A stretch of DNA of 64,000 bases from assembly GCA_039587755.1 (NCBI GenBank), contig JBDHBD010000021.1, positions 8,027 to 72,026 on the forward strand, read 5' to 3'. The position numbers were made by a program, and so were the translations under genes. Shown here one piece after another: positions 1,043 to 48,457 of the stretch. The stretch is from Gemmatimonadota bacterium. GTDB taxonomy: Bacteria; Gemmatimonadota; Gemmatimonadetes; Palauibacterales; Palauibacteraceae. The stretch's first letter is position 1, and the number at the start of each line of letters is the position of its first letter. A model generated the notes under the pieces. That model saw nothing but the letters and a program-made list of their open reading frames with translations, ran no database searches and was not told the DNA's origin.

Positions 1043-1093
1043 TTCCCTCAGTTCGACCGCGCGCGGCGGTCGGGTCAAGTAAACTTCCGCCGA

Positions 1094-2422: not shown

Positions 2423-2784
2423 TTGTGCCTCCTTCCTGCAACTCGGGTCCGGTGGCCGGGGCGGGCCGGGACCCGGTCGCATACACGGGGTTGCGGCTGC
2501 CCTCGCGAGTCCGGCAGATGCGCGTGCACCACCCGGTCGCGCAGACAACCGATGGACAGAGAGGCAAGGGCCGTGCGCGCCGTCCGGTTGTTCGCCGCCC
2601 GGTGGGGCGAGCGCCGCGGTGGGCCTTTCTGCCCGTCGCATCAAGCCTTAGGCGACCCCACCCGAGGAATCTGCAACCGACCGGACACGGCCAGGGATCC
2701 CGTGCTCGGGGCAAAAAGTCGCAGCGTAGGCCAACGGGCGGGGTGGTTTTCCCCCTTGAGGGACGGGCTTCGCGACGGGGAGGG

Positions 2785-3645
2785 TCACGCGGCGTTTGCC
2801 TCGTTACTCAGGCTGTCGAGCAACGCTCGCGAGCGATCCGCGCGCGCGGTCCAGAAGCGGGCGATGTCGGCCGTGATCTCCGACCATCTCCCATGCAGCT
2901 CGACCCACCGTCGTGCCTCGGCCGCCAGCCAGCTGAGGGTGGCCGCCGCATCCTGTCCGAGGAGTGCCTCGAGCGCGTACTTCCGCTCTCCCGCACGCAA
3001 CCCCAGACCGAGCTCTTCGGCCGCCCGTCGAAGATCGGATCGCACGAGTATCAGGCCGCTCCGCACGGGGCTCAGCAGAGAAGGAACGAATTCTTCGGGC
3101 GACTCCTGGCGCGGATCGGGCAGCGCGGGCGCATCCCGAAGGTGCAGGGGCAACCGCTGCGGGCCGCCCACACGGCTCGCTTCCTCGCGCAGTGCCGCGT
3201 CCAGGACGTTGGCCCACGCGGCGTAGAACCCATCGTGGAGCTGGGAAGTCTTGGCCAAGAAAGCCGGGAGAAAGCTCAGAAGATGCTCCCACAGAAACGT
3301 GTGCCGTACGCGGCGAGCCGCCTGTTTCTCTCGCTCTGAGCCGGCTTCACTCTCCAGCTCGCACAGCTCCGCGTAGCTCGCGAGCATCACGGCCAGGTGA
3401 TCGGGCTCGGGGGGTGGTGCCTCGCCCAGCGCGCGCCAGAAGCCGGCAATTCGGTCTCGAGCCTCTCCACCCAGCATTCCTTCCAGACCGAGATATACGG
3501 AGGCGTACGGATACAGCTGGAACTCGAAAAGCTCGGTGTAGACCGTGTCGTCCGGGACGGGACCGAGGCCCAGCAGATCGGCCAGCCGCTGAGAGGCGGG
3601 CGACGGGGGCTCGACGAGATAGCCGAGCGTTCGAAACAGCTCCAT
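2785..3645 (-). CDS. TorD/DmsD-family cytoplasmic chaperone for molybdoenzyme maturation (putative)
   Basis: 286 aa, acidic helical protein with TorD-like pattern (…ELFEFQLYPYASVYLG…), located immediately downstream of the Mo-bisPGD catalytic subunit gene. Family assignment is from motif memory only. Confidence 0.5.
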   Translation of the reverse strand: MELFRTLGYLVEPPSPASQRLADLLGLGPVPDDTVYTELFEFQLYPYASVYLGLEGMLGGEARDRIAGFWRALGEAPPPEPDHLAVMLASYAELCELESEAGSEREKQAARRVRHTFLWEHLLSFLPAFLAKTSQLHDGFYAAWANVLDAALREEASRVGGPQRLPLHLRDAPALPDPRQESPEEFVPSLLSPVRSGLILVRSDLRRAAEELGLGLRAGERKYALEALLGQDAAATLSWLAAEARRWVELHGRWSEITADIARFWTARADRSRALLDSLSNEANAA

Positions 3646-3661
3646 CGTTGCGCGTCTCGCG

Positions 3662-6595
3662 TCAGTCCGCCGCCACGGGCTCGAGGCGGTAGGCCTGCTT
3701 CACCGGCTTCACCGGTCGCATCAGCCAGTGAGGGCGCCGCGTTCCGTCGGGTGATACCTGACGGGCCGAGCGTGTCTTGGCCAGCCATTTCTGGAACACG
3801 CGATGCGCCTTCTCGGTGTCGACCGCGATGTCTCCGTAGCGATCGCCCGACTCGGCGCGCCGCACCCGCACCGCCTGGTGCCAGCAATGCATCCCGGAGA
3901 TCGGGTCGGGGTGCACCGGGAAGGTGAGGTTCTGGTGCACACCCACGTCGGTCCACCAGATGCGTCGCGTGTCGGGATCGTCGGAATCATACGGACGGGC
4001 GCCGCGTTTCCGACCCATTCGCCACCCCGCCCCCTCCCGGTCGAGCTTGACCGTCGCCATCAGCTGCCGCTGGCCCTCATCCCCCAGTTTCCAGCGTCCC
4101 ATGTGATGGCTGCAGGCCACGACGCCCGGGCGGATCCCCTCTGTCACCCACGCCTTCACGACGAAGTAGCCGATCTCCGTCTCCACCCGCACCAGGCCGC
4201 CGGTCTTCATGCCCAGCGGGGCCGCGTCTTCCGGGTGGAGCCACAGCGGGTTCGTGTGGGCGATCTCGTCCAGCCATTTCGCGTTCGCGCTCCGCGTGTG
4301 GATCTGGACGGGAAGGCGGAACGTGGAGATCAGGACCTTCTGGTCCTCGGCCAGCACCTCGGGGTGGACGTGGCTCTTGATGTAGGTCGGCAGGGCGTAC
4401 TCCGGCCATCCCCAGCGCACGAGGGTCGGGGAGTAGAACTCCAGACGGCCGCTCGGGGTGGGAAAGCCGCGCACCACCTTGCCGTTCTGATGCACACCGG
4501 CCAGCCGACGCCCCTCGGCATCCGGCTCGGGGCTTCCCGTCGGGGCCAGATTCAGCGCGGCCGGTTTGGGGGCGTGCGTCCACACGCGTCCGAGTTCATC
4601 CTCCACCGCGTCCTTCAACTCGTCCCGGCCGACCTCTGCCTCGTACAGAGGTCCGATGTCGCGGGCGACCTCGAACGCGCCGTAGCGGCGCATGTAGGCC
4701 AGCGGGTCCAGTCCCTCTCGCTCGGCCGCCTCCGGAAGGCCAGGCACCGAGTTCTCGAAGATATAGCGGTAGTACTCGTCGACGCTCAACCGCTCGCCGG
4801 GGCGCTCGGCGGACTCGACGAACTCGCGGATTCCCAGCTCCCCGTCCGGATCGATGCGCCACGAGAGCTCGAGCCAGAACTCGTTCTCCTCCCACACCTC
4901 ACCGGGGTTCGTGTGGCGCGTGTCTCCGACGGCTTCACCCATGCGCTCGCGAGCCGCCCGCAGCACGGGCTGACGAAAACCGATCCACTGACCGTCGTGC
5001 GTCTCGTACGAGTGTATGTCGTGCCGTTCCGGCCCATGCCCCATGGGCAGGATGTAGTCGGCGAAGTAGGCACTCTCGTTCCACGTCGGTGTGAGAGCGA
5101 CGTGCAGGCCCACCCGTCTTTCGTCGGTCAGCATCTCGAGCCACGAGAAGCCATCCGGGTTCGTCCACACGGGGTTGTAGACGCGGGTGAAGTACACATC
5201 GAGCTTGCCTCGACCGTCCCGCACCAGATGCGGAAGCAGGAAGGAGAGCTCGTACATGGTGAGCGGGTACTCTTCGGGCCACGTGAGTCCGTTCCACGTC
5301 TCGGGGTGGCGAGGCAGACGGATTGGACGCGGTACGAACTTGTTCCACGCATTCGGATAGAGGCCGCCCGGTGTGGCCACGGCCCCCAGGAGGGCGTTGA
5401 GGAAGAAGAGGGTACGCGATACCTGCCACCCGCCCTCGTTCCCAGCGGCCGCGCTTCGCCAGTTATGGGTGGCGAACCGGGTGCCTGCCGTGGCGACGGT
5501 CTCCGCCACCTGACGCAGGACATCGGCCTCGATCCCCGATTCCTCGGCTGCATACTCGAACGTGTAGTCGGCGTACAGCCGCTTCAGCTCGTCCTCGAAT
5601 CGCTCGAAGGTTGGCTCGGCCTCCGGACGGGCCGCCTCCAGGTACTGCCGCCAGTTGAACCACCGCCGTACGTAGTCTCGGTTGTAGAGGTCGTTCTGAA
5701 TCAGGTGGTTCGCGATTGCCAGCAGCACGGCGGCCTCGGAGCCCGGGAACGTGGGCAGCCAGTAGTCGGCGTGGGTGGCGGTGTTCGAGAGACGGGTATC
5801 TAGCACGATGAGCTTGGCCCCCGCCTGCTTCGCCTCGGAGATCCGCTGCGCGTGGGGGTTGAAGTAGTGGCCCGTCTCCAGGTGCGAGCTTACCAGCAGT
5901 ATCACCTTCGCGCGGCTGTGATCGGGGCTCGGACGGTCGATCCCGCACCAGAACTGATATCCCGCACGCGCGCCGGACGAGCAGATGTTCGTGTGAGAGT
6001 TGTGGCCGTCCACCCCCCAGGCGGCCATGATCCGCTCGGTGAAGCCATCCTCCCCTGGACGACCCACATGGTACATGACCTCGCGGTGGCGACCCTCCTG
6101 AATCGCCTTTCGGATGCGCGCCGCTAGATCGTCCAGCGCTTCGTCCCAGCTCACACGGGTCCACTTCCCTTCCCCTCGCTCACCGCCTCGCTTGAGCGGA
6201 TACAGAATCCGATCCGGATCCGTGATCTGATTCCGGGTCGCGGGACCCTTAGCGCAGTTCCGCCCACGGGAGCCCGGATGTTCGGGATTGCCCTCGAACT
6301 TGCGGATCTCGAACGTCTCCCGGTCCACGTAGGCGAGAAGCCCGCACGCCGACTCGCAGTTGAAGCAGGTGGTGGGGACCAGCATGAATCGGCGCTCCAC
6401 CCGCTCGGGCCAGGCCCTGGAGTCCAGCTCGACCCAGTCGTCCCACCGCTCCCTGGGCGGGAAGGCCGCGAGGTGGACGCGGCTCGGGCCCGGATAGAAC
6501 GTCTCGCCGCGGGCCTCGGTCTCGGCCCGCGCGGCGCTCACTCTTCGGTTGACGTCGCTCAGATCCATCGCAGGTCTCCGGCGCGTTCCCGACAT
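3662..6595 (-). CDS. molybdopterin (Mo-bisPGD) oxidoreductase catalytic subunit, PsrA/PhsA/SoeA-like, no evident Tat signal
   Basis: 977 aa with the N-terminal C-x2-C-x3-C…C [4Fe-4S] motif (CFNCESACGLL…GRNCAKG) typical of complex-iron-sulfur molybdoenzymes. No twin-arginine motif with a hydrophobic h-region. Alternative start at 6568 (MDLSDV…, GGAGA RBS). Confidence 0.8.
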   Translation of the reverse strand: MSGTRRRPAMDLSDVNRRVSAARAETEARGETFYPGPSRVHLAAFPPRERWDDWVELDSRAWPERVERRFMLVPTTCFNCESACGLLAYVDRETFEIRKFEGNPEHPGSRGRNCAKGPATRNQITDPDRILYPLKRGGERGEGKWTRVSWDEALDDLAARIRKAIQEGRHREVMYHVGRPGEDGFTERIMAAWGVDGHNSHTNICSSGARAGYQFWCGIDRPSPDHSRAKVILLVSSHLETGHYFNPHAQRISEAKQAGAKLIVLDTRLSNTATHADYWLPTFPGSEAAVLLAIANHLIQNDLYNRDYVRRWFNWRQYLEAARPEAEPTFERFEDELKRLYADYTFEYAAEESGIEADVLRQVAETVATAGTRFATHNWRSAAAGNEGGWQVSRTLFFLNALLGAVATPGGLYPNAWNKFVPRPIRLPRHPETWNGLTWPEEYPLTMYELSFLLPHLVRDGRGKLDVYFTRVYNPVWTNPDGFSWLEMLTDERRVGLHVALTPTWNESAYFADYILPMGHGPERHDIHSYETHDGQWIGFRQPVLRAARERMGEAVGDTRHTNPGEVWEENEFWLELSWRIDPDGELGIREFVESAERPGERLSVDEYYRYIFENSVPGLPEAAEREGLDPLAYMRRYGAFEVARDIGPLYEAEVGRDELKDAVEDELGRVWTHAPKPAALNLAPTGSPEPDAEGRRLAGVHQNGKVVRGFPTPSGRLEFYSPTLVRWGWPEYALPTYIKSHVHPEVLAEDQKVLISTFRLPVQIHTRSANAKWLDEIAHTNPLWLHPEDAAPLGMKTGGLVRVETEIGYFVVKAWVTEGIRPGVVACSHHMGRWKLGDEGQRQLMATVKLDREGAGWRMGRKRGARPYDSDDPDTRRIWWTDVGVHQNLTFPVHPDPISGMHCWHQAVRVRRAESGDRYGDIAVDTEKAHRVFQKWLAKTRSARQVSPDGTRRPHWLMRPVKPVKQAYRLEPVAAD

Positions 6596-6653
6596 CGACG
6601 CGCCATCGCGAATCTCCTATGTGAACGCCTGCGGCTGGCTCGCAGCCTGCCCA

Positions 6654-8273
6654 TCATGCCAACGGCACCGATTGCCCTGCCTGCACGTACGCGTGCTCGA
6701 ACGCCAGCAGGCCGATGAGCGCCGCCGGGCCGGCCACGACCCCGATCCACGGTGCCGCCACGCCGACCAGCGTCAACACGATCCCGACCCAGAAGAAGCC
6801 GCGGTACCGGCCGCGAGTCATCTCGTGCGCCGCCAGGTGAGCGTGTGCCGTCGCGTGTGTGATGGTTGTCTCGCCCGCCACCATGAGGAGGTGGACGAGG
6901 CTCGCACCGGCAAGCAGCCACAGCAGTGGTGTGACTTCTGTCGGGTCGAGCCAGACGGCCACCGGCACCAGCGCGCCCGCTCCCGCCAGGACACCCTGAA
7001 CGAGCAGGTGGGGCGGAAGCAGCGGGTTTTGCCACAGATCGCGTGCTTTCGCCTGGGCGAACAGGTAGGCCGTATAGACCGCTGTGAGCGTGGCGAGCGG
7101 CAGCCCGGCGAACATGAGCCCCCACACCAGCTCGGCACGACCGAACAGGACGCCGAGCAAGTGGAGAGCCAGCACGATGCCGTATCCCCCTACGATGAAG
7201 GCGCCACGGACCAGCCAGCTCTCCCAGCGCCGCCTGGTGAAGATCATGTAGAACCGCTCGGGGTGCTCCAGATCCCAAATCAGCAAGCCACCAGTGAAGG
7301 CCAGGAAGGCGGCGCCGACCACCGGGACACCCCATCGCCAGACGGGGCTCTCCGCATTGATCCAGCCGGCCAAAAGGGCCAGTACGGCCACCAGATACGC
7401 GCCCGCCGCGACCCCCTTGGTCAGGGTGTAGAGGCTGACCCGCCAGTCCCAGGGCATCTTGTGGGGAACGTCGTAGGCCAGCACTGCCGCCGCGGCCGTG
7501 TTGGTGGGACTGACCGGGCCCGCATCGGCCACACGACCGGCCCCCGGCCGCTCGTTCTTGTCGCCGGCGTTCCGACCGTTGTCGGACCCGTGCCCGGGGT
7601 GACCGGAAACCACGTGGCGCAGACCAGTCGTCTGCTCGCTCCACATGAACAGATCGCCCGGCGGCCTGAGCGCCGCGATCGGGTTCAGCGTCGCCTCGTG
7701 CGCGCCCGTATAGAACAGCTTTGGATGCGTCTCCTTCTGGGAACGTCTGACCGAGACGGGCTGACGGTGCACGATACGCGACACCTCGGAGCCCGAATCT
7801 CCCAGATCGCCCACCAGGATCGCCTCCACGGGACACACAACGACGCACGCGGGCTCCAGGCCCATATCGATGCGGTGCGCGCAGAAGTTGCACTTCTCCG
7901 CCGAGTGGTCCTCCGGGTTGATGAAGATCGCGTCGTACGGACAGGCGGCGATGCACGCCTTGCAGCCGATGCAGATGGACTTGTCGAAGTCGACGATCCC
8001 GTCCGCCCGCCGGTACATGGCTCCGGTCGGACACGCGACCGCGCAGGGCGCGAGCTCGCACTGGTTGCAGCGTGTGACCTGGAAGGCACGGCGCGCCTCA
8101 GGGAACACGCCGATGTCCACGTACTTGACGTAGGTCCGGTTGACGGAGAGCGGGACTTCGTTCTCGGACTTGCAGGCGGTGCTACAGGCGTGGCACCCGA
8201 TGCACCGGGTATGATCGACGACCTTGGCCCAGCGCACGGGTGGGGCGCCGGCTTCGGCAGCGGTTGTCGCCAT
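6654..8273 (-). CDS. fused 4x[4Fe-4S] ferredoxin-like subunit + NrfD/PsrC-type integral membrane quinone-interacting subunit
   Basis: N-terminal ~200 aa carry four Cys clusters (CIGCHACSTAC, CNQCELAPCAVACP, CIGCKACIAACP, CNFCAHR…CVVVCP). C-terminal ~330 aa form ~8 predicted transmembrane helices. ATG at 8273 preceded by GGGAG. Confidence 0.75.
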   Translation of the reverse strand: MATTAAEAGAPPVRWAKVVDHTRCIGCHACSTACKSENEVPLSVNRTYVKYVDIGVFPEARRAFQVTRCNQCELAPCAVACPTGAMYRRADGIVDFDKSICIGCKACIAACPYDAIFINPEDHSAEKCNFCAHRIDMGLEPACVVVCPVEAILVGDLGDSGSEVSRIVHRQPVSVRRSQKETHPKLFYTGAHEATLNPIAALRPPGDLFMWSEQTTGLRHVVSGHPGHGSDNGRNAGDKNERPGAGRVADAGPVSPTNTAAAAVLAYDVPHKMPWDWRVSLYTLTKGVAAGAYLVAVLALLAGWINAESPVWRWGVPVVGAAFLAFTGGLLIWDLEHPERFYMIFTRRRWESWLVRGAFIVGGYGIVLALHLLGVLFGRAELVWGLMFAGLPLATLTAVYTAYLFAQAKARDLWQNPLLPPHLLVQGVLAGAGALVPVAVWLDPTEVTPLLWLLAGASLVHLLMVAGETTITHATAHAHLAAHEMTRGRYRGFFWVGIVLTLVGVAAPWIGVVAGPAALIGLLAFEHAYVQAGQSVPLA

Positions 8274-15171: not shown

Positions 15172-17547
15172 TCAGAGATGACTCATGAAGATCACGTTGC
15201 GGGGGCACTCGGTGACACAGATCCCGCACCCCTTGCAGTACGCATAGTCGAACACCAGCTGGTGCCCGACCCGCTTGAGTACCCCCTCGGGGCAATAGGT
15301 GACACAGAGATCGCACTCGTTGCACACGCCGCACGACAGGCACCGCTTCGCCTCGCTCGGATCCGTCAAGCCCATGTGGATCTCGTCGAACGTGGACTGG
15401 CGGGTCGTCATGGGCAGGCTGGCGCCCTCCTGACCCGACTGACGCTCGAACAGGTGGAGCCGCATGGCGTCGGGGCGGATCACGTCGTCGTGCCAGACGT
15501 CCACGTCCCGCCGGTCCGCGGCGTGCTCGGTGATCTCCGTCCGCTCGCCGCTCAGCGCACCATGAATGTGGATTGCAGAGCGTCGTCCGCTCCCGATCGC
15601 GCCTGCCACCGTTCCGTCGTTGGTCGCTAGGTCGCCGATCGCGAACACGGGCGTCTCCAGCAGCCCGAGCAGCTCTTCCCCTTCCCTCACCTCGGTCCCC
15701 TCCGGGAATACGCTGAGGTCGGGAGATTGCCCGAGTGCGAGGATCACGCGGCTGCACTGCAGCTCGAAGTCCGACCCAGGAATCTCCACCGGGCGACGAC
15801 GGCTGGACTTGTCGGGTTCGCCGAGCTCCATGCGCCGGCAGGTGAGCCGATAGCCAGCGCCGTCGGGGCCCGCAGCGTGGGCCGAGGCGGCTTCCGACTC
15901 CGCGACTGTCCCCTCGGCTGCGGAACCGTCCGGCTGCAGCGAGATCGGTTGGACCAGATAATCGAGCTGCACTCCCTCCTCGAGTGCCTCGTCGATCTCC
16001 TCCGCGATGGCCGGCATTTCTTCCCGCGTGCGGCGGTACACGACGCGAGCGCTGTTCGCGCCGAGACGCAGCGAGGAGCGGGCGGCATCCATCGCCGTGT
16101 TCCCGCCACCCACCACGACCACATCCTCTCCGTCCACCCGAACGCGGCCGCGTCGCACCAGGTCGAGGAAGTCGATCCCCTGATCGACGGCTGGGGTGTC
16201 GCCGATCCCCAGCCGCAGTCCGCGCAGCTCCTGCAGGCCGGTCGCGACGAGCACGGCGTCGTGCTGGCCGGCCATCTCCATGAGCCCGCGCCGATCGATC
16301 GGATGCTCGGTGACGGCCTCCACCCCGAGCGCCAGGATGCGACCGATCTCGTGGTCCAGCACGTCCTCGGGCAGCCGAAAGCGTGGAATCCCCGAGCGAA
16401 GGAGCCCCCCCAGGTCAGCCGTCGATTCGTACACCGTGACCCGATAGCCATAACGAGCGAGATGGTAGGCGGCGGTCAGCCCGGCCGGCCCCGAGCCGAC
16501 GACCGCCACCCGCTCATCGTGAACCTCCACGGGGTTGAGCGCCGCGTTCCCGTTGTCGCCGGCGTAACGTTCCAGCTGCCGCACGTTGACCGCGCCGTCC
16601 AGATCGATCCGATTGCACGAAGCCATGCACGGGGCCGGGCACACCCGTCCGCACACAGCCGGGAACGGGCTGCTCTCCAGCAGGATCTCGAGCGCTCGGT
16701 CGGGGTCGTCGTGGGCCAGGGCGTGCAAGAACCCCTGCACGTCGTTCCCGGCCGGGCAGACATGGTTGCAGGGAGGGATGTACTGCTGTCGGTGCGGCTG
16801 CTCCGTAGCCCACTGTCCCGTCTCGATCCCCGGCAGGTCGCCACCCGCCCCTTCGAGAAAGCTCGGTCCCCGTGGAACGATCGTGTACGGGGCGGCCGTT
16901 TCCGCCGACTCCTCTTGGATTCCCGCCTCTTCCGCCCCTTCCGGCACTGCTCCCCCTGGCGCGGTCGCTTCCTCCAGGCCGACGCCGGCGTCGGCCGCGG
17001 CATCTCCGGCAAGGCGCAGCGCCTCGTGCGCCTGGCTCGCCGCCGCGATGTTCGGCCCCACGAAACCCAGGTGCTCGAGAGCGTCGTGAATCTCCGTTAG
17101 CTCGAAGCCGAGCAGCCGCGCGGCGGCCCCGGCGAGCGCCGTGTTGACAATCGGCACACTTCGGGTGCCCAGCTTGTTGGCGCGGGCGATAGCGGTGGCG
17201 TCCACCGTCGCGACGGGATTGTCCGGAAACTGCTCCGCCAGATCCTGCGGCTCCTTCGTGGTGTTGATCAGGATCCAGCCGCCGGGCTTCAGGCCACCCG
17301 TGATGGCGGATCCGACCAGGGTCGGATCGAGGACGATGATGTGGTCGGGCGAGTAGATCAGGTTTCGGTTGGCGATCGGCTCGTCATCGTAGCGACAGAA
17401 GGCCTGGATGGGCGCCCCTGATCGCTCCGCGGCGTACAGACCGAAGGCCTGCACCGACTGGCCGAGCAGGAAACGGGAGGTGGCGATGATCTTGGCCAGG
17501 GTCACACCACCCTGACCGCCTCTCCCATGAATGCGGATCTCGACCAT
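15172..17547 (-). CDS. fusion protein: OFOR gamma subunit - GltD/NfnB-like NAD(P)H-dependent FAD/[FeS] oxidoreductase - OFOR delta (2x[4Fe-4S] ferredoxin) subunit
   Basis: Residues 1-~185 PorG-like. Residues ~250-690 carry GltD-type Cys clusters (CNHVCPAGNDV…CGRVCPAPCMASC) and two Rossmann GxGxxG motifs (VVGSGPAGLTAA; VVVGGGNTAMDAA). Residues ~700-791 have two CxxCxxCxxxCP motifs typical of PorD. RBS GAGGAG. Confidence 0.8.
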   Translation of the reverse strand: MVEIRIHGRGGQGGVTLAKIIATSRFLLGQSVQAFGLYAAERSGAPIQAFCRYDDEPIANRNLIYSPDHIIVLDPTLVGSAITGGLKPGGWILINTTKEPQDLAEQFPDNPVATVDATAIARANKLGTRSVPIVNTALAGAAARLLGFELTEIHDALEHLGFVGPNIAAASQAHEALRLAGDAAADAGVGLEEATAPGGAVPEGAEEAGIQEESAETAAPYTIVPRGPSFLEGAGGDLPGIETGQWATEQPHRQQYIPPCNHVCPAGNDVQGFLHALAHDDPDRALEILLESSPFPAVCGRVCPAPCMASCNRIDLDGAVNVRQLERYAGDNGNAALNPVEVHDERVAVVGSGPAGLTAAYHLARYGYRVTVYESTADLGGLLRSGIPRFRLPEDVLDHEIGRILALGVEAVTEHPIDRRGLMEMAGQHDAVLVATGLQELRGLRLGIGDTPAVDQGIDFLDLVRRGRVRVDGEDVVVVGGGNTAMDAARSSLRLGANSARVVYRRTREEMPAIAEEIDEALEEGVQLDYLVQPISLQPDGSAAEGTVAESEAASAHAAGPDGAGYRLTCRRMELGEPDKSSRRRPVEIPGSDFELQCSRVILALGQSPDLSVFPEGTEVREGEELLGLLETPVFAIGDLATNDGTVAGAIGSGRRSAIHIHGALSGERTEITEHAADRRDVDVWHDDVIRPDAMRLHLFERQSGQEGASLPMTTRQSTFDEIHMGLTDPSEAKRCLSCGVCNECDLCVTYCPEGVLKRVGHQLVFDYAYCKGCGICVTECPRNVIFMSHL

Positions 17548-40102: not shown

Positions 40103-43100
40103 TTAGCTTCCGATCGCGCGACCGGGTGTCCAGGGGGCTCCGGCGGCCTCCAGGGCTTCCTCCAGGAGGCGTATTTCGTCGGTCGTCTGGCGAAGACCGG
40201 TCTCGACTTCCTCCAGCTGGTCGGCCGCGATCTCGAGGCTCGATCGGAACGTCGCTGTGGGCGGCTGGGTCGTCCTCCAGTGTCCCGTGGCCACCTGTCC
40301 GATCCGTCCGAGGATCGAGGGTCTCGAGGGCTCGTTCAGCCGTCCGCGCACGCGGTCGCCCATGAGGCGCACGGACAGATCGGCCAGTCGGTCGTCGAAT
40401 CGAGAGACCTCCGTGAGCAGGGTCGCGTCGGCGTCCGGCGTCTCCAGGACGGCCTGGCGCATGTGGGCCAGACGGGTCCGCGCTTCGCCCACCAGCTCGG
40501 ATGCCCCCATGGCCCGCCGCTGCAGCTCGGCCGTCTGTTGCTGGAACGTCAGAGTCTCCACCGGGTCGCCCGCCGGCAGGCTGTGCTCCTGGAAGTCTCT
40601 CACTTCGAATGCCCTGGGCTCCGCCAGAGCACGGAGCTCTCCGTCCACCAGGCGACTCATTTCCACGGTGTAGGTGCCCGGGGCGACCATGGGACTCGTA
40701 AAGTCGTCGGCCCAGATGGGCAACGGGCCGGGGTCCAGGTCGATGGGCCGCGGTGAGGGACCCCGAAGATTCCAGGCGACCCGGTGGATACCCGGAGTGT
40801 CGGGGCCGGCGACGCGGCGGACCACATTTCCCCGAGCGTCCCTAACGGTCAGGATCAGCGTCGGCTCGCGCTCCCGACTCTCCTCGCGGAGGGCGTCCCA
40901 GCCGGGGAAAGGCACGTCTTCTCTCGCATCCCGGAGCTCTGCTTCCCGCGCCTCCCGGCGCTCGCGGGCCGTCTGGATTTCGTCGCGCAGGAAGTACGTG
41001 AAGACGGCGCCGAAGGCCGGGTTGGGCGCCGAGTAAAGGGCGCTTCCCTGATACGCCTTGTCCCGCGCACCCAGGTCCATGGATGGGACGTAGCGCAGCG
41101 CGTCACGCACCGGAAACAGCTGGGCTTCGGTCGCCAGAACCTGAGCGCTCATCCCCCTGAGCGGGCTGTAGTCGTCGAGGACGAAGAAGCCTCGCCCGAA
41201 GGAGGCCGCCACGAGGTCGGATTCCCTTCGCTGGATCTGGATGTCCCGCAGCGGGATCACGGGCACTCCGCCCGTGAGCTTGATCCACTGATTTCCCCCG
41301 TCCGAGGTGAAGAAGAGACCGAACTCGCTCCCCACGAACAGCAGATCGGGAACCACGTGGTCCTGCTCAACGGTCCACAAGATATGCCGCTCAGGAAGGT
41401 CGCCGGCGATCGACACCCAGGTCCGTCCCCTATCGGTGCTCTTAACGAGGTAGGGTGAAGAGTCGCCTTCCTTGTGGTTGTCGAGCACGGCGAACACGGT
41501 GTTCGGATCGGTCATGGAGGCCTGGATGTCGTTCACGAACGCCCGGCGCGGGATTCCTGTGATCGCGTCGACCGTCCGCCAGGTCTGGCCACCGTCCTCG
41601 GTTATCTGGATGAGCCCGTCGTCGGTTCCCACGTAGATGAGGTCTTCCACCAGCGGTGATTCGCTGATCGTCGTCGTGTTCCCGTACCACGACATGGCCC
41701 CGTTGTCGTACAGGGCGCTCACCCCGGGCACGTGATCGATCATGGGGAGCTCGTAGCGACCGCGACCTCGAGACAGGTCGCCGCTCACCGGTCTCCAGGA
41801 GTCGCCCCGGTCGTCGCTCCGCCACAGACGCTGCGAACCGAAGTACATACGCGCGCTGGAGTGCGGGCTGATCTCCAGGGGCGCATCCCAGTTCCAGCGC
41901 TCGGGCGCATCCGCGGGAGCCGGTTGGGGTTGGATGTCCAGCACCTCCCGCGTTCTTCGGTCGTAGCGCAGCAGGCGGCCGTTCTGCCAGGTGAGGTAGA
42001 TGAGGTCCGGGTTCTCCGGGTCGATCTCGGTGTCGTACCCATCTGCCCCGTAGGCCACGATCCAGTCCCGGTTCTGTATCCCGTGCATGCTGGCGGTCCG
42101 AGAGGGTCCGTACAGGGTCCCGTTGTCCTGCGTGCCACCGATGATGTGGTAGAAGGGTTCATCGTCGTCGACGGCCATCTTGTAGATCTGGGTTAGAGGC
42201 AGGTTGGATACGAACTTCCACGACGCTCCGTGATCGTAGCTTTCGTAGAGCCCCCCATCGGAGCCGGCCAGCAGGTAGTCCGGGTCGTCCCAGACGAAGG
42301 CGAGGGCATGGTTGTCACTATGCTTGTCCGGCTCGCCCAGCTCGCGGAAACTCCGGCCCCCGTCGTCGGTCACGTGCATCCAGACGTCCATCTGATAGAC
42401 GCGGTCGAAGGTGTGGGGTGAGGCGTAGATCTCCTGGTAGTAATGGGGGCCCGTCCCGTTGCTCACGTAGGAGTTCCGCTTCTCCCACGTCTCGCCGCCG
42501 TCCTCGGAACGGTAGAAGCCGCGGTCCTCCGGTTCGGCCTCGATCGTGGCGTAGATTACCTGCGAGTCGATGGGGGAGATGGCCAGGTTGATCTTGCCCA
42601 TCGGGCCGGAAGGCAGCCCGCGCGTGAGCTCGCGCCAGGTCTCCCCTCCGTCGCTGCTCTTCCAGATCCCGGATTCGGGGCCGCCCGCCAGGTGGGCCCA
42701 CACCTTGCGCCGCCGCTGATACGTGGCGCTGTACACCACGTCCGGGTCGGTGGGATCGCGTTCGAGGTCCGTGGCCCCCGTCTCATCGCTTACCGTAAGG
42801 ACGGGCTGCCAGCTATCGCCCCCATCCGTAGTCTGGTACACGCCCCGCTCACCACCGGAGCTCCACAGCGGTCCCTCCGCTGCCACCAAGACCACGTCGG
42901 AGTCCCGGGGGTCCACGAGTATCCTCCCGATGTGCTCGGAGGTCCGGAGGCCCATGTTCGTCCAGGTCTCTCCACCGTCCAGGCTCTTGTAGACGCCGTC
43001 GCCGTATCCCACGTGGCGACCGCTCACGTTCTCGCCGGTGCCGACCCAGACGACGTCGGGATGGGCGGGGTCGAGGCTGATCTCGCCGATGGAGTACGCC

Positions 43101-43387
43101 CCCTGATCGTCGAAGATGGGAGTCCACGTCGTGCCGTTGTTCACCGTCTTCCACACACCGCCCGAGCCCGCAGCTACGTACCACATGGCACGGTCTTCAG
43201 GGTGAATCTCGACATCGGCAATCCGTCCCGACATGAGGCCCGGACCGAGGCCCCGAAATCTCAGGCCCGAGAAGGTCTCGGCTCGCATGCCGGGGGCTGC
43301 ACCCTCCTGAGCTTCTCCCGAGGCGGGCCATCCGAAGATGGAGAGAACGGAAAGGGAGGCACACAGCCATCCCGCGATCGTTGGCAT
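40103..43387 (-). CDS. BNR/Asp-box repeat protein, sortilin/VPS10-like (glycoside-hydrolase-like beta-propellers), secreted
   Basis: Signal peptide, then many S-x-D-x-G-x-T-W Asp-box repeats (SLDGGETW, TTDGGDSW, SSDGGETW, SEDGGETW, TDDGGRSF, TEDGGQTW, STDRGRTW, TSDGGNQW) over ~1090 aa. Confidence 0.7.
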   Translation of the reverse strand: MPTIAGWLCASLSVLSIFGWPASGEAQEGAAPGMRAETFSGLRFRGLGPGLMSGRIADVEIHPEDRAMWYVAAGSGGVWKTVNNGTTWTPIFDDQGAYSIGEISLDPAHPDVVWVGTGENVSGRHVGYGDGVYKSLDGGETWTNMGLRTSEHIGRILVDPRDSDVVLVAAEGPLWSSGGERGVYQTTDGGDSWQPVLTVSDETGATDLERDPTDPDVVYSATYQRRRKVWAHLAGGPESGIWKSSDGGETWRELTRGLPSGPMGKINLAISPIDSQVIYATIEAEPEDRGFYRSEDGGETWEKRNSYVSNGTGPHYYQEIYASPHTFDRVYQMDVWMHVTDDGGRSFRELGEPDKHSDNHALAFVWDDPDYLLAGSDGGLYESYDHGASWKFVSNLPLTQIYKMAVDDDEPFYHIIGGTQDNGTLYGPSRTASMHGIQNRDWIVAYGADGYDTEIDPENPDLIYLTWQNGRLLRYDRRTREVLDIQPQPAPADAPERWNWDAPLEISPHSSARMYFGSQRLWRSDDRGDSWRPVSGDLSRGRGRYELPMIDHVPGVSALYDNGAMSWYGNTTTISESPLVEDLIYVGTDDGLIQITEDGGQTWRTVDAITGIPRRAFVNDIQASMTDPNTVFAVLDNHKEGDSSPYLVKSTDRGRTWVSIAGDLPERHILWTVEQDHVVPDLLFVGSEFGLFFTSDGGNQWIKLTGGVPVIPLRDIQIQRRESDLVAASFGRGFFVLDDYSPLRGMSAQVLATEAQLFPVRDALRYVPSMDLGARDKAYQGSALYSAPNPAFGAVFTYFLRDEIQTARERREAREAELRDAREDVPFPGWDALREESREREPTLILTVRDARGNVVRRVAGPDTPGIHRVAWNLRGPSPRPIDLDPGPLPIWADDFTSPMVAPGTYTVEMSRLVDGELRALAEPRAFEVRDFQEHSLPAGDPVETLTFQQQTAELQRRAMGASELVGEARTRLAHMRQAVLETPDADATLLTEVSRFDDRLADLSVRLMGDRVRGRLNEPSRPSILGRIGQVATGHWRTTQPPTATFRSSLEIAADQLEEVETGLRQTTDEIRLLEEALEAAGAPWTPGRAIGS

Positions 43388-43468
43388 GCAGGCGCGTCGC
43401 GCGATCATCTTTCCTTTACTCCCTTGAAGGCATTGGATCTGGCAATCTGCACAGCCGAAACGTGGCGC

Positions 43469-43978
43469 TCAGGGCTCTTTGTCACCTGACCGATTCAGCA
43501 TGGAGCGCAGGAGAATTACGTCCTGCCTGTCCTGCGGTCTATCGGCTGCTTCCTTGGATCGGATAATGGCAGCCAGGCTGGCCGCTTGTAGCTCGACCCC
43601 GAAGACACTGAAAAGGACGGCGTCCGTGGTCAGTTCCTCGTAGTCCCGGATCCCGGCAGGACTGAACGCCATGTCGATCCGCCCAGCTACGGTGACGAGG
43701 TTCCAGATGTCCGATCGGGCGAGCATCTCGGCCGTACAGTCGAAGGCGAGTCCGCCCGGGACGGTTTCGGTGAACACGCGGGCGTCAAGTTCTCGCAGCG
43801 CAGCAGCCAGACGCTCCAGGTTCTCGGGCGCACGCGAAGGGGTGATGTCGGCATCGGTCGTTACACGAGGGAAACCCTGCAGACGGGCGGCCAACGCGCC
43901 GATCAAAACGTAGTCGACATCGTGCCTAGCCAGCGTGGTGACGATCCGCTCGGGATCGAACGGCGCGATCTCAGACAC
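43469..43978 (-). CDS. minimal nucleotidyltransferase-fold protein (putative toxin/AbiEii- or MNT-like)
   Basis: …VDYVLIGALAARLQG…TTDADI… resembles the hG[GS]…DxD nucleotidyltransferase core; overlaps the upstream HTH gene by 8 nt. Confidence 0.5.
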   Translation of the reverse strand: MSEIAPFDPERIVTTLARHDVDYVLIGALAARLQGFPRVTTDADITPSRAPENLERLAAALRELDARVFTETVPGGLAFDCTAEMLARSDIWNLVTVAGRIDMAFSPAGIRDYEELTTDAVLFSVFGVELQAASLAAIIRSKEAADRPQDRQDVILLRSMLNRSGDKEP

Positions 43979-44297
43979 GCTCTGCGGCCGACTCGAAGCG
44001 GCTCAGATTTCGAAGCTCGAGCAAGCGGTCTTCGGGATCCAGTCGAAGGATCCGTTCGACGTCCGTCATCATGTGCGAGTCAAAGACGGGACCCGGAACG
44101 AGCTCTGCGCGCAATTCGAATCCGGACGCCTCGACCAGTCGCCCAAGAGTTGAAACCGTTGGGCTCGTCTGCCCGGCCTCGATGCGCGCGACGACGGACT
44201 GGGCGGTTCCAGCCCGTCGGGCGAGCTCTCGTTGACTCAATCCGGCTCGTGTGCGCGCTGCCCGGACCAGCTCCGCGGCTTGGAATTCAACGTCCAT
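43971..44297 (-). CDS. XRE-family helix-turn-helix transcriptional regulator (putative antitoxin)
   Basis: …AGLSQRELARRAGTAQSVVARIEAGQ…TVSTLGRLVEASG… is a canonical HTH_XRE; 108 aa. Confidence 0.7.
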   Translation of the reverse strand: MDVEFQAAELVRAARTRAGLSQRELARRAGTAQSVVARIEAGQTSPTVSTLGRLVEASGFELRAELVPGPVFDSHMMTDVERILRLDPEDRLLELRNLSRFESAAERV

Positions 44298-44305
44298 GAC
44301 AAAAT

Positions 44306-44323
44306 GATAGCTAATTAGCTATC
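44306..44323. promoter_or_regulatory. perfect 18-bp palindrome GATAGCTAATTAGCTATC, 9 nt upstream of the HTH gene start
   Basis: Read directly; an AT-rich island in GC-rich DNA. Overlaps the stop codon of the kinase fragment. Confidence 0.5.
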
Positions 44324-44603
44324 ACCACACAATCGGCCCGGGCGCTTGGGCGTCTTCGACCGGCAGCGGCGCTTGGCTGTGGGGGTGGGTGAGCTGTGCG
44401 GCGATCTCGATCTCCCGGAGGAATCTTTCCCCCGCCAGCGTGGCCGAGAGCTCGGGGTGGACAACCTTGATCGCGACCTGGCGGCCGTGTTTCAGGTCCT
44501 CGGCCAGGTAGACAGTCGCCATTCCGCCACGACCGATCTCGCGCATCATGGCGTAGCGATCGGAGAGGGCCGTCTGGAGGCGATCCATGGGCGCTGACAT
44601 CAC
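44322..44603 (-). pseudogene. N-terminal fragment of a Ser/Thr protein kinase (subdomains I-III only)
   Basis: …YAMMREIGRGGMATVYLAEDLKHGRQVAIKVVHPEL…ERFLREIEIAAQL… is the ATP-binding lobe only. The frame terminates after ~90 aa and no kinase remainder follows. Confidence 0.55.
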
Positions 44604-44712
44604 GACACCGCCTTGTGCGAGGAGGCGTCAGCTCACACTCGGGCCTCAGGAAAGGTGTTCGAGGCCAGGGAGCGCAGCAAGACGATTCGCCGGCCCGCGT
44701 CATCGTCCGCAG

Positions 44713-46794
44713 CTACCTTCTCGGGAGTGCGAAAGCCACCAAGTAGTCACCCTCTCCATGCGACCCGCCCCCGGCCGCGGCGATGACCACGTACTGTCGC
44801 CCGCTGGGGCCCCGATACGTCATCGGTGTGGCCTGACCAATCGCCGGCAGTTCCGCCTTCCAAAGTTCCTCGCCCGTGTCGATGTCGAAGGCTCTGAGCG
44901 CGGGGTCATCCGTGGAGGCGATGAACACGAGCCCGCCGGCCGTCGCGATCGGCCCGCCGAGGTTAATCGAACCGGCGTTGTCAGGAAGTAGGCGTAGCGT
45001 CTCCGAATCGCCCACGGGCATGCGCCCCAACGGCGTTTCCCACAGCCGCTCGCCCGTAGCTAGGCTCACGGCGACTAGCGCCCCGAAAGGCGGCGGCGTG
45101 CACGGGATCCCGGAGGGTGAGCGCAGGCTGCGCCGCCGCATCGCGTACGGGGTGCCTACCATGATGTTGTACTCGTAGCCCAGACCCAGGCGGCCCGACT
45201 CCGCCTCGGCACTGTCCCGACTGAATCCTTCGGCCGGAATGAGCTGAACCATCGCGGCGTGCCGGTTGACGGGTACGACCGCGATCTGGCGCACCGGGTC
45301 AAAGGTCAGACCGCCCCAATGCGCTCCACCGATGGTCGACGGCATGACGAGAGTGCCCTGAAGACTCGGTGGCGTGAAGATCCCCTCGTTTCGGAGAGCG
45401 CCGAGGATCTCCCGACACGCTTCCCGTTCCTCTTCGGTGACTCCGAACGCGTCCTCTGGTGTCACCTGGTGAGGGCTCAAGGGGTGGATCGCCGCCGTAA
45501 AGGGCTGGGTCGGCCAGGTCTCTTCTCCCGGCACGTCACTCGCTGGCACAGGTCGCTCCTCGACCTCGAAAAGGGCCTCGCCCGTCTCTCGGTGGAGCAC
45601 GAATAGCATACCGGTCTTCGTGGCCTGGAGAACGGCTGGAATCTCGATCTCAGCCTGAGGTCCTCCGTCAGGCTCACCTGATCGGCGCAAGGTCACTAGC
45701 GCCGGCGGAGACGCGTTGTCGTAATCCCACAGGTCGTGGTGCACCGTCTGGAAATCCCACACCACTTTGCCGGTCTGGGCGTCCAGCGCCACGATCGAGT
45801 TCCCGTACCGTCCGGCTCCTTTTCGAAGACCGCCGTAGTAGTCCGGGGCCGGGCTCGAAGTCGGCGCGAAGACGAGACCCCGTTGTGGGTCCGCAGTCAT
45901 GACCGACCACACGTTCGCGCTGCCTGTCAGCGCGGGGCTACCCTCCTGCCACGTTTCGAACGCCGGATCAAGCGGAGTCTGGGGGATCGGATCCCAGCTC
46001 CATCGAAGCTGGCCCGTACGGACGTCGAACGCGCGGACCTCGCCGCTGGCCGGCGCCCGGCGGCTGTTGTCCGCAATCGCCGAGCCCGTGATCACAAGAT
46101 CGCCAACGACGAGGGGTGGCGATGTGACCTGGTACGCCGGGTACTCGAAGGGCGCTATGCGGAGTCCCCGTCGGAGGTCGATCTGCCCTGACCCGCCGAA
46201 ATCCTGACATGGCCTGCCGTCGGCCGCGTCGAGCGCGATCAGTCTCGCGTCGATCGTCGCCGCGAAAATTCGACGGTCACAGCCCGACGTAGAACGGGTC
46301 GAGGGGTCGACCCTTCCGCTCCCCGTCGAGGCCGCCGCCACGAGGGCCGGGTCGACCCATATGGACACCCCGCGACTCGCGAAATCGCCGTAACTCTCAA
46401 ACCGGTCGATTCGCGCATCGTGGACCCAGAGCTCTTCACCTGTGTCCGCGTCGAGCGCGATCACGCGACCGAGAGGTGTACTCAGGTACATGATCCCCTC
46501 GACGACAATGGGGGTTGCCTCGAGCGTGGGTTCTTCACGAGTGGCGAAACCAGGGTCTGCTTCCCCTGTTTCGTAGCGCCATGCCACGGTGAGCTGCCGG
46601 ACGTTGGAGCGGTCTACTTCGTCCAGGCGCGAATAGCGGGAGCCGAATACGTCACCGCCGTAGGCCCACCATTCCGACCCGGGGGCTCCTCTTACGCCCG
46701 CATTGTCGGTTGAGTCCGCCCCAGCGCACGCCGAGAGAACCAGGGCCAATCCCGTGGCCCCGGTAATCAGCCGCCAAGAGGAAGCGGCGCTCAC
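44713..46794 (-). CDS. PQQ-dependent dehydrogenase (quinoprotein, 8-bladed propeller), lipoprotein/secreted
   Basis: Lipoprotein signal (LALVLSACAG) and repeated W-motif propeller pattern typical of PQQ glucose/alcohol dehydrogenases. GTG start overlaps the stop of the upstream gene. Confidence 0.75.
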   Translation of the reverse strand: MSAASSWRLITGATGLALVLSACAGADSTDNAGVRGAPGSEWWAYGGDVFGSRYSRLDEVDRSNVRQLTVAWRYETGEADPGFATREEPTLEATPIVVEGIMYLSTPLGRVIALDADTGEELWVHDARIDRFESYGDFASRGVSIWVDPALVAAASTGSGRVDPSTRSTSGCDRRIFAATIDARLIALDAADGRPCQDFGGSGQIDLRRGLRIAPFEYPAYQVTSPPLVVGDLVITGSAIADNSRRAPASGEVRAFDVRTGQLRWSWDPIPQTPLDPAFETWQEGSPALTGSANVWSVMTADPQRGLVFAPTSSPAPDYYGGLRKGAGRYGNSIVALDAQTGKVVWDFQTVHHDLWDYDNASPPALVTLRRSGEPDGGPQAEIEIPAVLQATKTGMLFVLHRETGEALFEVEERPVPASDVPGEETWPTQPFTAAIHPLSPHQVTPEDAFGVTEEEREACREILGALRNEGIFTPPSLQGTLVMPSTIGGAHWGGLTFDPVRQIAVVPVNRHAAMVQLIPAEGFSRDSAEAESGRLGLGYEYNIMVGTPYAMRRRSLRSPSGIPCTPPPFGALVAVSLATGERLWETPLGRMPVGDSETLRLLPDNAGSINLGGPIATAGGLVFIASTDDPALRAFDIDTGEELWKAELPAIGQATPMTYRGPSGRQYVVIAAAGGGSHGEGDYLVAFALPRR

Positions 46795-48305
46795 ATCGTC
46801 GGCTGCACGTTGGCGTTCAGGCGGAACAGATTCTCCGGGTCGTACTCGTTCTTGATCTGCACCAGCCGACTGTGGTTTTCCCGGTAGTTGCGGCTGACGG
46901 TCGGGGCCGTATGGTCGATCTCTAGGTCGTTCACGTAGAACCCCGTGGTGAACGACTCGATGGGCGACCAGAACTGCTTGATCCAAGCGATGTGCTCGCT
47001 GCCGTCTCGACCGAAGGGCCAGTTGACGAAGCTCAACAGGTTGCCCATCGCATCGCGGTGCGCGAAAGCGGTGGCGTCGTTGGCGACGCGCCCGATCACG
47101 CCTCCGCTCTGTTGCAGAAAGACCGCGGTGCTGCGCGACGGGTGCCCCTCCAGGCCCTCGACGATCCTCGAGACCAGCCCCTCCGGCATCTCCGTGATGA
47201 ACCCGCTCTTCAGGTAGGATGCGCGGGCTCTCGGATCGTCCGTGTCACCGGAGCGCTGTAGAGCTACGTAGTCCATGGCCTGGATAGTGTCGGCAATCGG
47301 GGTGCCGATCTTGCGAATGGGCGCGAACACGCTTTCCGCGTCACTCTCCTGCCCCGAGTAACAGCAGACGAAGCCGGCGGAGCCCGGCTCACCTCCCGGC
47401 GGGTGGGACACGAAGAACCCGATATCCAGCTCGTCGGGCGCCTCGTGGCTGAACTCGGAGAAGAAGCTCAACACGTCTCGAGCTTTGTCGATCGGGAATA
47501 CGATGTTGCCGGCGACGACCTGCCGCTGCATCGGGTGGAGCTGGAACAGGAAGGAGGTGACGATCCCGAAGTTCCCGCCGCCTCCGCGGACGCCCCAGAA
47601 CAGATCCTCGTTCTCGTCGGCGCTCGCACGGAGGAGCTGGCCGTCGGCCGTCACCACATCCACGGCCAGGAGATTGTCGACCGAGAGTCCGAAGCGTCGT
47701 CCCAGTCGCCCGAAGCCTCCTCCCGTGACCAACCCGCCGGCACCCGTGTGCGACACCGTGCCCATCGTGGTGACCAGGTCGTGCGCCATTGCTTCGTGGT
47801 CCACCTGCCCCAGCAGGCTGCCTCCCGTCACTCGTGCCGTGCGAGCCACCGGATCGACTCGACAATCCCGGAAGTGTGCAAGGTCGATCTGCATACCGCG
47901 GTCGCACGTCGATTTGCCCGAGGAGCTGTGTCCTCCGCATTTCACGGCGAGCAACAGATTGTCGTGCTCGCGCGCGAAGCTCACGGCGGTTCGGACATCC
48001 GCCGCTCCGGTCGGCTGCACGACGAGTGCGGGGTGCTTGTCAAAGGACGGATTAAGGAGGAGCCGCGCCTCGTTATACCCGTCGTCTCCGGCCAGTAGCA
48101 CGCGCCCCCTCAAACGGGCGCTCAGATCTGCGATGTCCTTGCCGCTGATTGTGATTTCGCCCCCAGCTCCCGTAACCGCGTCGACGTCGGGCGGGACCTG
48201 TGGAGCTTCCTGGAACAAGGGACTGGCGCGTAACGAGCGGCCATAAGGAATCGATGCGGCCGCCGCAGCGGCGAAGGAGGAACGGATGAACGTGCGTCGC
48301 TTCAT
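46791..48305 (-). CDS. FAD-linked oxidase (PCMH-type FAD-binding, BBE/vanillyl-alcohol-oxidase-like) with Tat signal
   Basis: Twin-arginine leader MKRRTFIRSSFAAAAAASIP, FAD-binding domain pattern and a C-terminal BBE-like region. ATG 48305 with GGAGG RBS. Confidence 0.75.
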   Translation of the reverse strand: MKRRTFIRSSFAAAAAASIPYGRSLRASPLFQEAPQVPPDVDAVTGAGGEITISGKDIADLSARLRGRVLLAGDDGYNEARLLLNPSFDKHPALVVQPTGAADVRTAVSFAREHDNLLLAVKCGGHSSSGKSTCDRGMQIDLAHFRDCRVDPVARTARVTGGSLLGQVDHEAMAHDLVTTMGTVSHTGAGGLVTGGGFGRLGRRFGLSVDNLLAVDVVTADGQLLRASADENEDLFWGVRGGGGNFGIVTSFLFQLHPMQRQVVAGNIVFPIDKARDVLSFFSEFSHEAPDELDIGFFVSHPPGGEPGSAGFVCCYSGQESDAESVFAPIRKIGTPIADTIQAMDYVALQRSGDTDDPRARASYLKSGFITEMPEGLVSRIVEGLEGHPSRSTAVFLQQSGGVIGRVANDATAFAHRDAMGNLLSFVNWPFGRDGSEHIAWIKQFWSPIESFTTGFYVNDLEIDHTAPTVSRNYRENHSRLVQIKNEYDPENLFRLNANVQPTM

Positions 48306-48457
48306 GAATGCCTCCGGCTGCTGGGACCAAGCGCGGAAAGCTGCAGATATAGGTGAGGCTGGGACGTTCGGCAATCGCTTTCTAATGGCGCACGGTGGAC
48401 GTGAGGTTCACAATGTCCTGGAAGAGGTGGGTCACTATGTAGAGGGAGGCGTGATTG

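Follow-up and report, generated by a model that had tools for sequence, protein, structure and literature searches.

A 64,000-nucleotide stretch of a Gemmatimonadota metagenome-assembled genome (MAG; assembly GCA_039587755.1, contig JBDHBD010000021.1), referred to below as the window, carries a small operon of about 0.87 kb (43469 to ~44332, minus strand) in which a gene for an XRE-type helix-turn-helix (HTH) protein is followed by an overlapping gene for a nucleotidyltransferase (NTase). This pair is probably an autoregulated, horizontally mobile operon, namely a type II-like toxin-antitoxin (TA) module in which a toxin resembling MenT1 of Mycobacterium tuberculosis is combined with an XRE antitoxin. 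Directly upstream lies the 5' part of a Ser/Thr kinase gene, called the stub below. All three genes are encoded on the minus strand, at the positions called by the first-pass annotation of this DNA, and the same arrangement is present identically in two MAGs of the same species.

The nucleotidyltransferase is related to MenT1

The NTase gene (43469-43978, minus strand) begins with a GTG start codon and encodes a DUF6036-like protein of 169 aa. In Pfam it gives only a sub-threshold match to DUF6036 (PF19502; E 0.0075, 16.5 bits against a gathering cutoff of 23.6), and no match to AbiEii (PF08843/DUF1814) was obtained at E up to 0.1. Many homologues with about 70% identity to it have a precomputed PF19502 match, which places the family, as judged from these profiles, at the margin of DUF6036 or next to it.

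An AlphaFold2 model of the protein, calculated with 18 homologues (predicted local distance difference test, pLDDT, 90.7), shows the fold of the MenT-type NTases. When a profile of the close family was compared with the PDB, TM1012 alone was found, as a weak match. With a profile of the broad family, built from 56 representatives with mutual identities of no more than 50%, MenT1 was the top match (E 2.8e-4, 143 residues aligned). In the profile alignment F38-T39-R40-D41-V42-D43 of MenT1 lies opposite T-T40-x-D42-x-D44 of the family, K137 of MenT1 corresponds to K142 and RPQDRSD(152) to RPQDRQD(153), and FTRDVD and K...RPQDRxD are common to MenT1 and the NTase family. The MenT1 residues T39, D41, K137 and D152, which matter for toxicity, nucleotide binding and regulatory autophosphorylation (PMC10435456, PMC11375011), all have their counterparts in the active site of the window protein (T40, D42, K142 and D153).

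The key residues of the NTase are G27, T40, D42, D44, D102, K142 and D150/D153 within RPQDRQD. Throughout the close family T40, D42, D44, D102, K142, D150 and D153 are invariant. In the broad family G27 and K142 are invariant, T40, D42, D44, D102 and D150 are found in at least 90% of the members, and D153 in less than 90%. By this homology the NTase is assigned as a remote relative of MenT1 outside the Pfam AbiEii model. The first-pass annotation had described it as AbiEii/MNT-like; the first half of this description stands insofar as MenT1 is AbiEii-related, and the MNT half has to be dropped, as there is neither a match to NTP_transf_2 nor a HEPN partner.

The HTH and NTase genes form a tight pair

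The XRE-HTH gene (43971-44297, minus strand, ATG at 44297) encodes 108 aa with a clear match to Pfam HTH_3 (E 3.7e-13). The protein consists of an N-terminal HTH (~aa 8-61) and a conserved C-terminal two-helix region (~aa 72-108). Among proteins of solved structure HipB and HigA, both antitoxins, are closest to it in sequence, and in PADLOC it is recognized by generic HTH models only. The C-terminal motif SHML.DV.RIL.LTPE.RL.EV.N.SRF, which spans 40 residues, is conserved to the same degree as the HTH itself.

HTH and NTase genes overlap by 8 nt (GTGTCTGA, 43971..43978, minus strand), which hold the GTG start of the NTase and the TGA stop of the HTH gene. A genome scan at one genome per species yielded 80 loci, and in 79 of them an HTH homologue is encoded immediately upstream of the NTase gene. 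Of 78 homologous loci 53 have the same 8-nt overlap and a further 7 one of 4 nt, suggesting that translation of the two genes is coupled. Two small, adjacent, co-directional and coupled genes are the arrangement of type II TA modules, and the TA-like two-gene architecture reported by the first-pass annotation was confirmed.

In divergent branches HTH and NTase are joined in a single chain of 250-310 aa (e.g., P0361, P0364, P0368, P0378, P0382, and P0390). These natural fusions provide Rosetta-stone evidence for a physical partnership of the two proteins. One of them was modelled (pLDDT 89.9, predicted template modelling score 0.79), and the residues of the C-terminal motif fold as two helices in this model. 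From the sequence features taken together the HTH protein is predicted to act as both autorepressor and antitoxin.

A predicted operator is conserved within a predicted promoter

Upstream of the HTH gene a perfect palindrome, TGATAGCTAATTAGCTATCA, is located at 44305..44324 (unstranded), which is the predicted operator of the module and is conserved in homologous loci. It had been described as 18 bp long and measures 20 bp. A perfect palindrome of 20 bp carries no significance by its length, since an arm of at least 10 also arose in 18% of the sequences simulated with a first-order Markov model, and a second one of 20 bp, which is GC-rich, is present in the window at 16977-16996 (GGCCGACGCCGGCGTCGGCC). 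What exceeds chance by far is that 76 independent homologous loci have kept the predicted operator in the same place.

These 76 loci have distinct sequences, come from several phyla and share the consensus T-GATAGC-N6-GCTATC-A ahead of the HTH gene; its half-sites hardly vary, and its centre is variable. The pattern is found once per locus and exclusively at this place. At a fixed position relative to the palindrome it is preceded by a -35-like TTGc element (T in 64, T in 46, G in 53, and C in 41 of the 76 loci), which starts nine bases ahead of the G of GATAGC; two bases separate the hexamer from the 20-bp palindrome. On the other side GCTATCA is followed by a T in 70 of the 76 loci, creating the -10-like hexamer TATCAT at a distance of 17 nt from the -35-like hexamer. 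In the window the two elements are TTGTGT (44327..44332, minus strand) and, 17 nt downstream, TATCAT (44304..44309, minus strand), the latter made up of the right operator half-site and one T.

The start codon of the HTH gene (ATG in 68 loci, GTG in 8) is located 6-7 nt past the palindrome in 61 of the 76 loci, and in the window six nucleotides (TTTGTC) lie between TATCAT and ATG. This spacing leaves no room for a Shine-Dalgarno sequence, and a leaderless mRNA is predicted. The geometry implies that the putative operator takes up the spacer of the promoter and reaches into the -10 element, as expected for operator-controlled leaderless transcription. With an HTH_3 domain in the first protein and a palindrome set within -35/-10-like elements in 76 loci, binding of the HTH protein to this site and repression of its own operon, the autoregulation typical of type II TA modules, are predicted.

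The assignment of the operator to the HTH protein is supported by two independent cases of co-variation between operator and recognition helix. In the first, two loci (L059 and L081) have the symmetrically changed operator GATACC/GGTATC together with the recognition helix TTQAVVARIE, in place of TAQSVVARIE. Both carry TGATACC-N6-GGTATCA at 3655-3674 and the HTH changes A32T and S34A, and the operator change is probably one evolutionary event common to the two loci. In the second, the plasmid copy of Mycolicibacterium rufum described below, the operator reads ATAAC-N6-GTTAT and overlaps TATAGT, the GTG start follows 6 nt on, and the recognition helix is LVQPAIARWE.

A doubled site was seen in another locus (L024, ~930-998), in which two operator-like palindromes stand in tandem upstream of the HTH gene, TGATAGCGTATTAGCTATCG followed by TGATAGCTAATTAGCTATCA, about 45 nt apart. 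A generic terminator scan called no terminator, and an Rfam scan of 43000-45000 gave nothing credible.

The module is found in several phyla

Homologues of the NTase are numerous. A word-indexed search returned 2,823 of them, with the top 120 all 66-74% identical, and an exhaustive profile search gave 7,701 clusters (50% identity) at E up to 0.001, of which 157 remained at E up to 1e-30. Modules were found in Gemmatimonadota, Myxococcota, Acidobacteriota, Beta- and Gammaproteobacteria, Rhodothermales/Balneolaceae and in bins labelled Spirochaetales. The identity to the window NTase amounts to 72% in Myxococcota, 70% in Acidobacteriota, 64-68% in Betaproteobacteria, 68% in Rhodothermales, and 62% in Balneolaceae, and this cross-phylum range of 62-72% is the same as that within the Gemmatimonadota (60-72%). 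The distribution over at least six phyla is patchy, as for horizontally transferred genes.

The flanks of the sampled loci are unrelated to one another, with, for example, a peroxidase and a solute-binding protein, a Phd-PIN pair and Omp85, or PolX and haem biosynthesis genes as neighbours. In the sampled contexts no integrase or transposase was detected. Palindrome, -35/-10-like elements and start-codon spacing accompany the gene pair across phyla, which agrees with the earlier proposal of a discrete module that brings its own operator.

One copy is present in a cultured host. In M. rufum JCM 16372 it is encoded on a 264-kb MOBF plasmid (NZ_CP092428.2, 129550-130355; L171 4640-5486) with an NTase that is 50.6% identical to that of the window. 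Both genes of this pair (WP_043416234.1 / WP_052429202.1) are annotated generically there, and the RefSeq name of the NTase is 'hypothetical protein'. In one Gemmatimonadota contig (L013) a second, divergent NTase homologue of 29% identity is encoded just downstream of the module in convergent orientation (2042-2476, minus strand).

The proposed role as a defence cassette was not borne out. PADLOC has no match for the NTase, phage genomes and viral contigs yielded no copy of the module, and the neighbours are mostly housekeeping genes, with one adjacent Phd-PIN pair, mentioned above.

The kinase stub and its origin

The stub open reading frame (ORF; 44322-44603, minus strand, 93 aa) matches Pfam Pkinase at positions 1-59 of 263 (E 2.3e-8), and extends over subdomains I-III into the beginning of IV. 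Of the kinase hallmarks Gly-rich loop, VAIK lysine and alpha-C glutamate are retained, HRD and DFG are missing, and a complete Hanks-type Ser/Thr catalytic domain is not present. From its sequence the stub is predicted to be catalytically dead and is likely a pseudogene, a non-functional 5' remnant. Its first 75 aa (44379..44603) are 60-79% identical to the N-termini of Gemmatimonadota kinases, with the alignment ending at ...LTHPH (aa 75, ~nt 44379). For the last 18 codons no kinase similarity was found in any of the three frames. A continuation of the kinase by frameshift was considered and ruled out, as the other two frames contain no kinase sequence after HPH.

Between the end of the kinase homology and the palindrome lie 54 nt. 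The 8 nt nearest to the palindrome are the -35-like hexamer and two spacer bases; the other 46 nt (44333..44378, minus strand) are translated within the non-kinase tail of the stub ORF and match neither kinase sequence nor the sequence upstream of other modules. The frame ends at TGA (44324-44322), the first three minus-strand bases of the operator. The stop codon within the palindrome had been noticed before and needs no special cause, because the operator consensus itself starts with TGA.

No remnant of the kinase follows the module. The next gene downstream begins only 60 nt past the NTase stop and encodes a BNR/sortilin-like protein (40103-43408), and tblastn revealed no other kinase segment in the window. 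The short kinase ORF was not found as a standalone gene in relatives; it recurs only together with the module, in MAGs of the same species. The first-pass annotation thus described the truncation correctly, and its explanation, replacement of the kinase body through insertion of the cassette, is plausible.

A later deletion explains the stub equally well, and we give it close to an even chance. Here the module would already have been located just downstream of an intact kinase gene, whose body was then lost by an internal deletion. Such a starting point exists in four loci of other Gemmatimonadales (L053, L067, L069, and L079), where the module lies between full-length tandem kinase genes and the upstream kinase ends ~25-200 nt before the operator. 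In a fifth (L049) a full-length kinase gene follows directly downstream, with the upstream side beyond the available sequence. The kinase-free 54 nt with their unmatched 46 nt fit a deletion as well, as does the cassette itself: neither flanking direct or inverted repeats nor target-site duplications or terminal inverted repeats were found around it, and its GC content of 0.59-0.65 is only a slight dip from that of the flanks (0.65-0.69). On the other hand, the downstream neighbour in the window is the BNR/sortilin-like gene and not a kinase gene, so that the locus is unlike those arrays, the tail of the stub does not resemble the C-terminus of the kinases upstream of other modules, and an intermediate allele is missing.

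An allele with the intact kinase was searched for from both flanks. Via the BNR/sortilin homologues, the best at most 70% identical, three contexts (L083-L087) were obtained, none with synteny. Via the C-terminus of the PQQ-dependent (pyrroloquinoline quinone-dependent) dehydrogenase encoded on the other flank of module and stub (44713-46986), the best matches in metagenome contigs were 68% identical and had neither a kinase gene nor the module nor a BNR gene as neighbour. In the mechanical ORF list this dehydrogenase ORF overlaps by ~195 nt (46791-46986) with an ORF for an FAD/BBE (flavin adenine dinucleotide/BBE) oxidase (46791-48374). The dehydrogenase probably starts further in, as the gene call in L001 has 693 aa and the ORF list 757 aa.

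The search via the BNR/sortilin-like gene also led to a variable region in another genome. In the Gemmatimonadota contig JACZXQ010000008 and its relatives (L083-L085, ~1000-7700) PIN, AbiEi and Fic genes are crowded upstream of the homologue, which is 69% identical. In one variant AbiEii and a group II intron reverse transcriptase are added, and the region varies between otherwise identical contigs. Selfish modules may accumulate there in a local hotspot.

Embedding of the module in kinase arrays was observed in the five loci named above and also in L039, L008, and L052. Kinase genes near the module are about two-fold more frequent than a rough genome-wide expectation based on our own estimate of kinase counts, a weak excess as some of the loci are orthologous. 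Short kinase ORFs also occur elsewhere on long Gemmatimonadota contigs, as N-terminal fragments of 80-115 aa whose tails, unlike that of the stub, look frameshifted after HPH (P0143, P0146, P0159, P0170, P0213, and P0239). They appear to be pseudogenes or assembly errors, some of them partial genes at contig ends, and not orthologues of the stub.

Proposed mechanism and alternative explanations

If the pair is a TA module, it might work as follows. A sigma-70-type promoter (TTGTGT, 17 nt, TATCAT) would start transcription at or next to the ATG and produce a leaderless mRNA, as the conserved geometry suggests. A dimer of the XRE-HTH protein on the 20-bp palindrome would repress its own operon, for which the conservation of the site and its co-variation with the recognition helix speak, and the NTase would be translated by coupling via the 8-nt overlap. 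By analogy to known pairs the C-terminal helices of the HTH protein may bind and neutralize the NTase, and the HTH protein possibly triggers autophosphorylation at Thr40, as MenA1 does for MenT1 at Thr39. Upon depletion of the HTH protein the free NTase would, judged by its homology, add nucleotides to nucleic acid, most likely to the 3' ends of tRNAs, and thereby block translation and arrest growth. The kinase stub would lie outside the module, with a frame that runs into the module promoter and ends at the TGA of the operator.

Several points weigh against a TA module. The sequences show the anatomy of the module, its conservation, the co-variation and the homology; toxicity, neutralization, complex formation, DNA binding, transcription start and substrate are all inferred in this family. 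The partner of the NTase matches neither the known MenA nor the AbiEi antitoxin type. The -35 element of the window, TTGTGT, agrees with TTGACA in 3 of 6 positions, and a generic promoter scan made no call there. The NTase stays below the threshold of DUF6036, and AbiEii, NCBIfam and PADLOC give no match for it. Several of the fusion proteins lack the first catalytic aspartate (TAAVDF, TAAMDI, and ASRMEI). Because of these degenerate DxD motifs not all relatives can be active, which suggests that the aspartate-less fusions are inactive or repurposed derivatives. Finally, the NTase is acidic (pI 4.6, family median 5.3), like the antibiotic nucleotidyltransferases, which also match the fold.

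This acidity is the reason for keeping a small-molecule NTase as the chief rival. The enzyme would adenylylate an antibiotic or metabolite, as ANT(2'')-Ia and LnuA do, under control of an XRE protein that is a mere repressor, and the operon would spread through resistance and not through addiction. ANT(2'')-Ia and LnuA are 16-17% identical to the window NTase and were missed by the sequence profile, and we know of no coupled HTH partner for either of them. We regard a resistance or metabolic enzyme as unlikely.

The second rival, which we hold to be less likely still, is a non-toxic regulatory pair in which the NTase modifies its HTH partner or another protein by nucleotidylation or phosphorylation, comparable to the action of MntA on HepT but for signalling, and tunes transcription without growth arrest. 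The strict co-occurrence of the two proteins and the existence of fusions would fit this, the degenerate aspartates of some fusions are compatible with a structural or regulatory role, and the neighbours of the module are mostly housekeeping genes. Yet no operator was found apart from that of the module itself, which occurs once in each locus, and no regulon is visible; the non-fused family has kept the catalytic residues that it has in common with a proven toxin, and the patchy cross-phylum distribution is typical of selfish modules.

Two further ideas concern Thr40 and the stub. It is a long shot that the module of the window is the first member to be recognized of a very large group of MenT1-like NTase toxins under XRE antitoxins, controlled by antitoxin-induced autophosphorylation of Thr40, in which Hanks kinases of Gemmatimonadota also phosphorylate Thr40 and couple the toxin to kinase signalling, the stub being a relic of this association. 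That the kinase N-lobe fragment is itself a functional third component, for example a decoy or sensor acting on the Thr40 phospho-acceptor of the NTase, is very improbable: its ATP-binding loop, VAIK lysine and alpha-C glutamate are intact, it is identical in 2-3 MAGs, phosphorylation at the corresponding Thr or Ser controls toxins of the MenT type (PMC11375011), and the module adjoins a kinase gene in ~8 of ~55 Gemmatimonadota loci, but a kinase fragment is found directly upstream of the module in none of the 78 loci from other species, the fragment has no catalytic-loop or activation-segment motif, the MAGs with the stub belong to one species, and the enrichment is weak, as Gemmatimonadota kinases are many and often arrayed and several kinase-adjacent loci are mutually orthologous. 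As no kinase fragment precedes the module in these 78 loci, the stub is not counted as a component of it.

Significance

The preferred reading, a TA module that unites a MenT1-like toxin with an XRE antitoxin, would have consequences beyond this locus. MenT-type tRNA-modifying toxins would reach well beyond the DUF1814/AbiEii families that are now used to find them, and would come to include a DUF6036-like superfamily that numbers thousands of members among phyla of soil and sediment. The pairing with an XRE protein would be another antitoxin solution for one toxin fold. The family offers testable handles, namely a 20-bp binding site, four predicted catalytic residues, a leaderless promoter, natural fusions and M. 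rufum as a cultured host. The family is a solid and widespread TA candidate whose regulatory anatomy is unusually clear, but it is not surprising in principle. To the source genome it adds nothing out of the ordinary, a selfish cassette of two genes beside a dead kinase fragment, and the stub is incidental.

Comparison with known systems

In the open-access literature no description of a pair of XRE and MenT1-like/DUF6036 proteins was found. DUF6036 was not mentioned in the literature searched, and no paper combining NetFlax with nucleotidyltransferase was found. The TA listing of Makarova 2009 has no Xre-NTase pair. TM1012 (PDB 2ewr), to which the close-family profile gives a weak match, has no known function.

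HEPN-MNT modules (HepT-MntA, type VII TA) are alike in having a minimal NTase within a mobile two-gene module. In these systems, though, the NTase is the antitoxin and its partner a HEPN RNase, whereas the module described here contains no HEPN gene and its NTase does not match NTP_transf_2; it does not belong to this type.

The module would act in the manner of the NTase TA systems of the MenAT/AbiE type. The toxins of AbiE and MenAT3-MenAT4 are bi-lobed proteins of ~290 aa (PMC10435456), in contrast to the 169 aa of the window NTase. Their AbiEi/COG5340 antitoxin combines a winged HTH with a kinase-like C-terminal domain (PMC10435456); here AbiEi_1 gives no match and the partner, an XRE HTH_3 protein, is neither of the known MenA nor of the AbiEi type.

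Closer in its toxin is MenAT1 of M. tuberculosis (Rv0078B-Rv0078A), as the NTase is homologous to the AbiEii-related MenT1 in fold and active site. The identity of the two is ~24%, and the window protein falls outside Pfam AbiEii/DUF1814. The antitoxins differ, MenA1 being a protein of 68 aa with no DNA-binding domain (PMC10435456) and the partner here a 108-aa XRE-HTH protein with a conserved operator. For MenT1 tRNA modification, toxicity and induced autophosphorylation have been demonstrated; for the window NTase the first two are predicted by homology, and the third is possible by analogy.

In its antitoxin the module is nearest to the XRE type II TA modules HipB-HipA, HigA-HigB and Xre-RES. 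Their toxins are a kinase, an RNase or an ADP-ribosyltransferase, where the window encodes an NTase, and for the C-terminal two-helix extension of the HTH protein no homologue was detected. Common to all are the XRE HTH, a palindromic operator, predicted in the case of the window, that overlaps the promoter, the antitoxin gene in first position and the coupling of the two genes.

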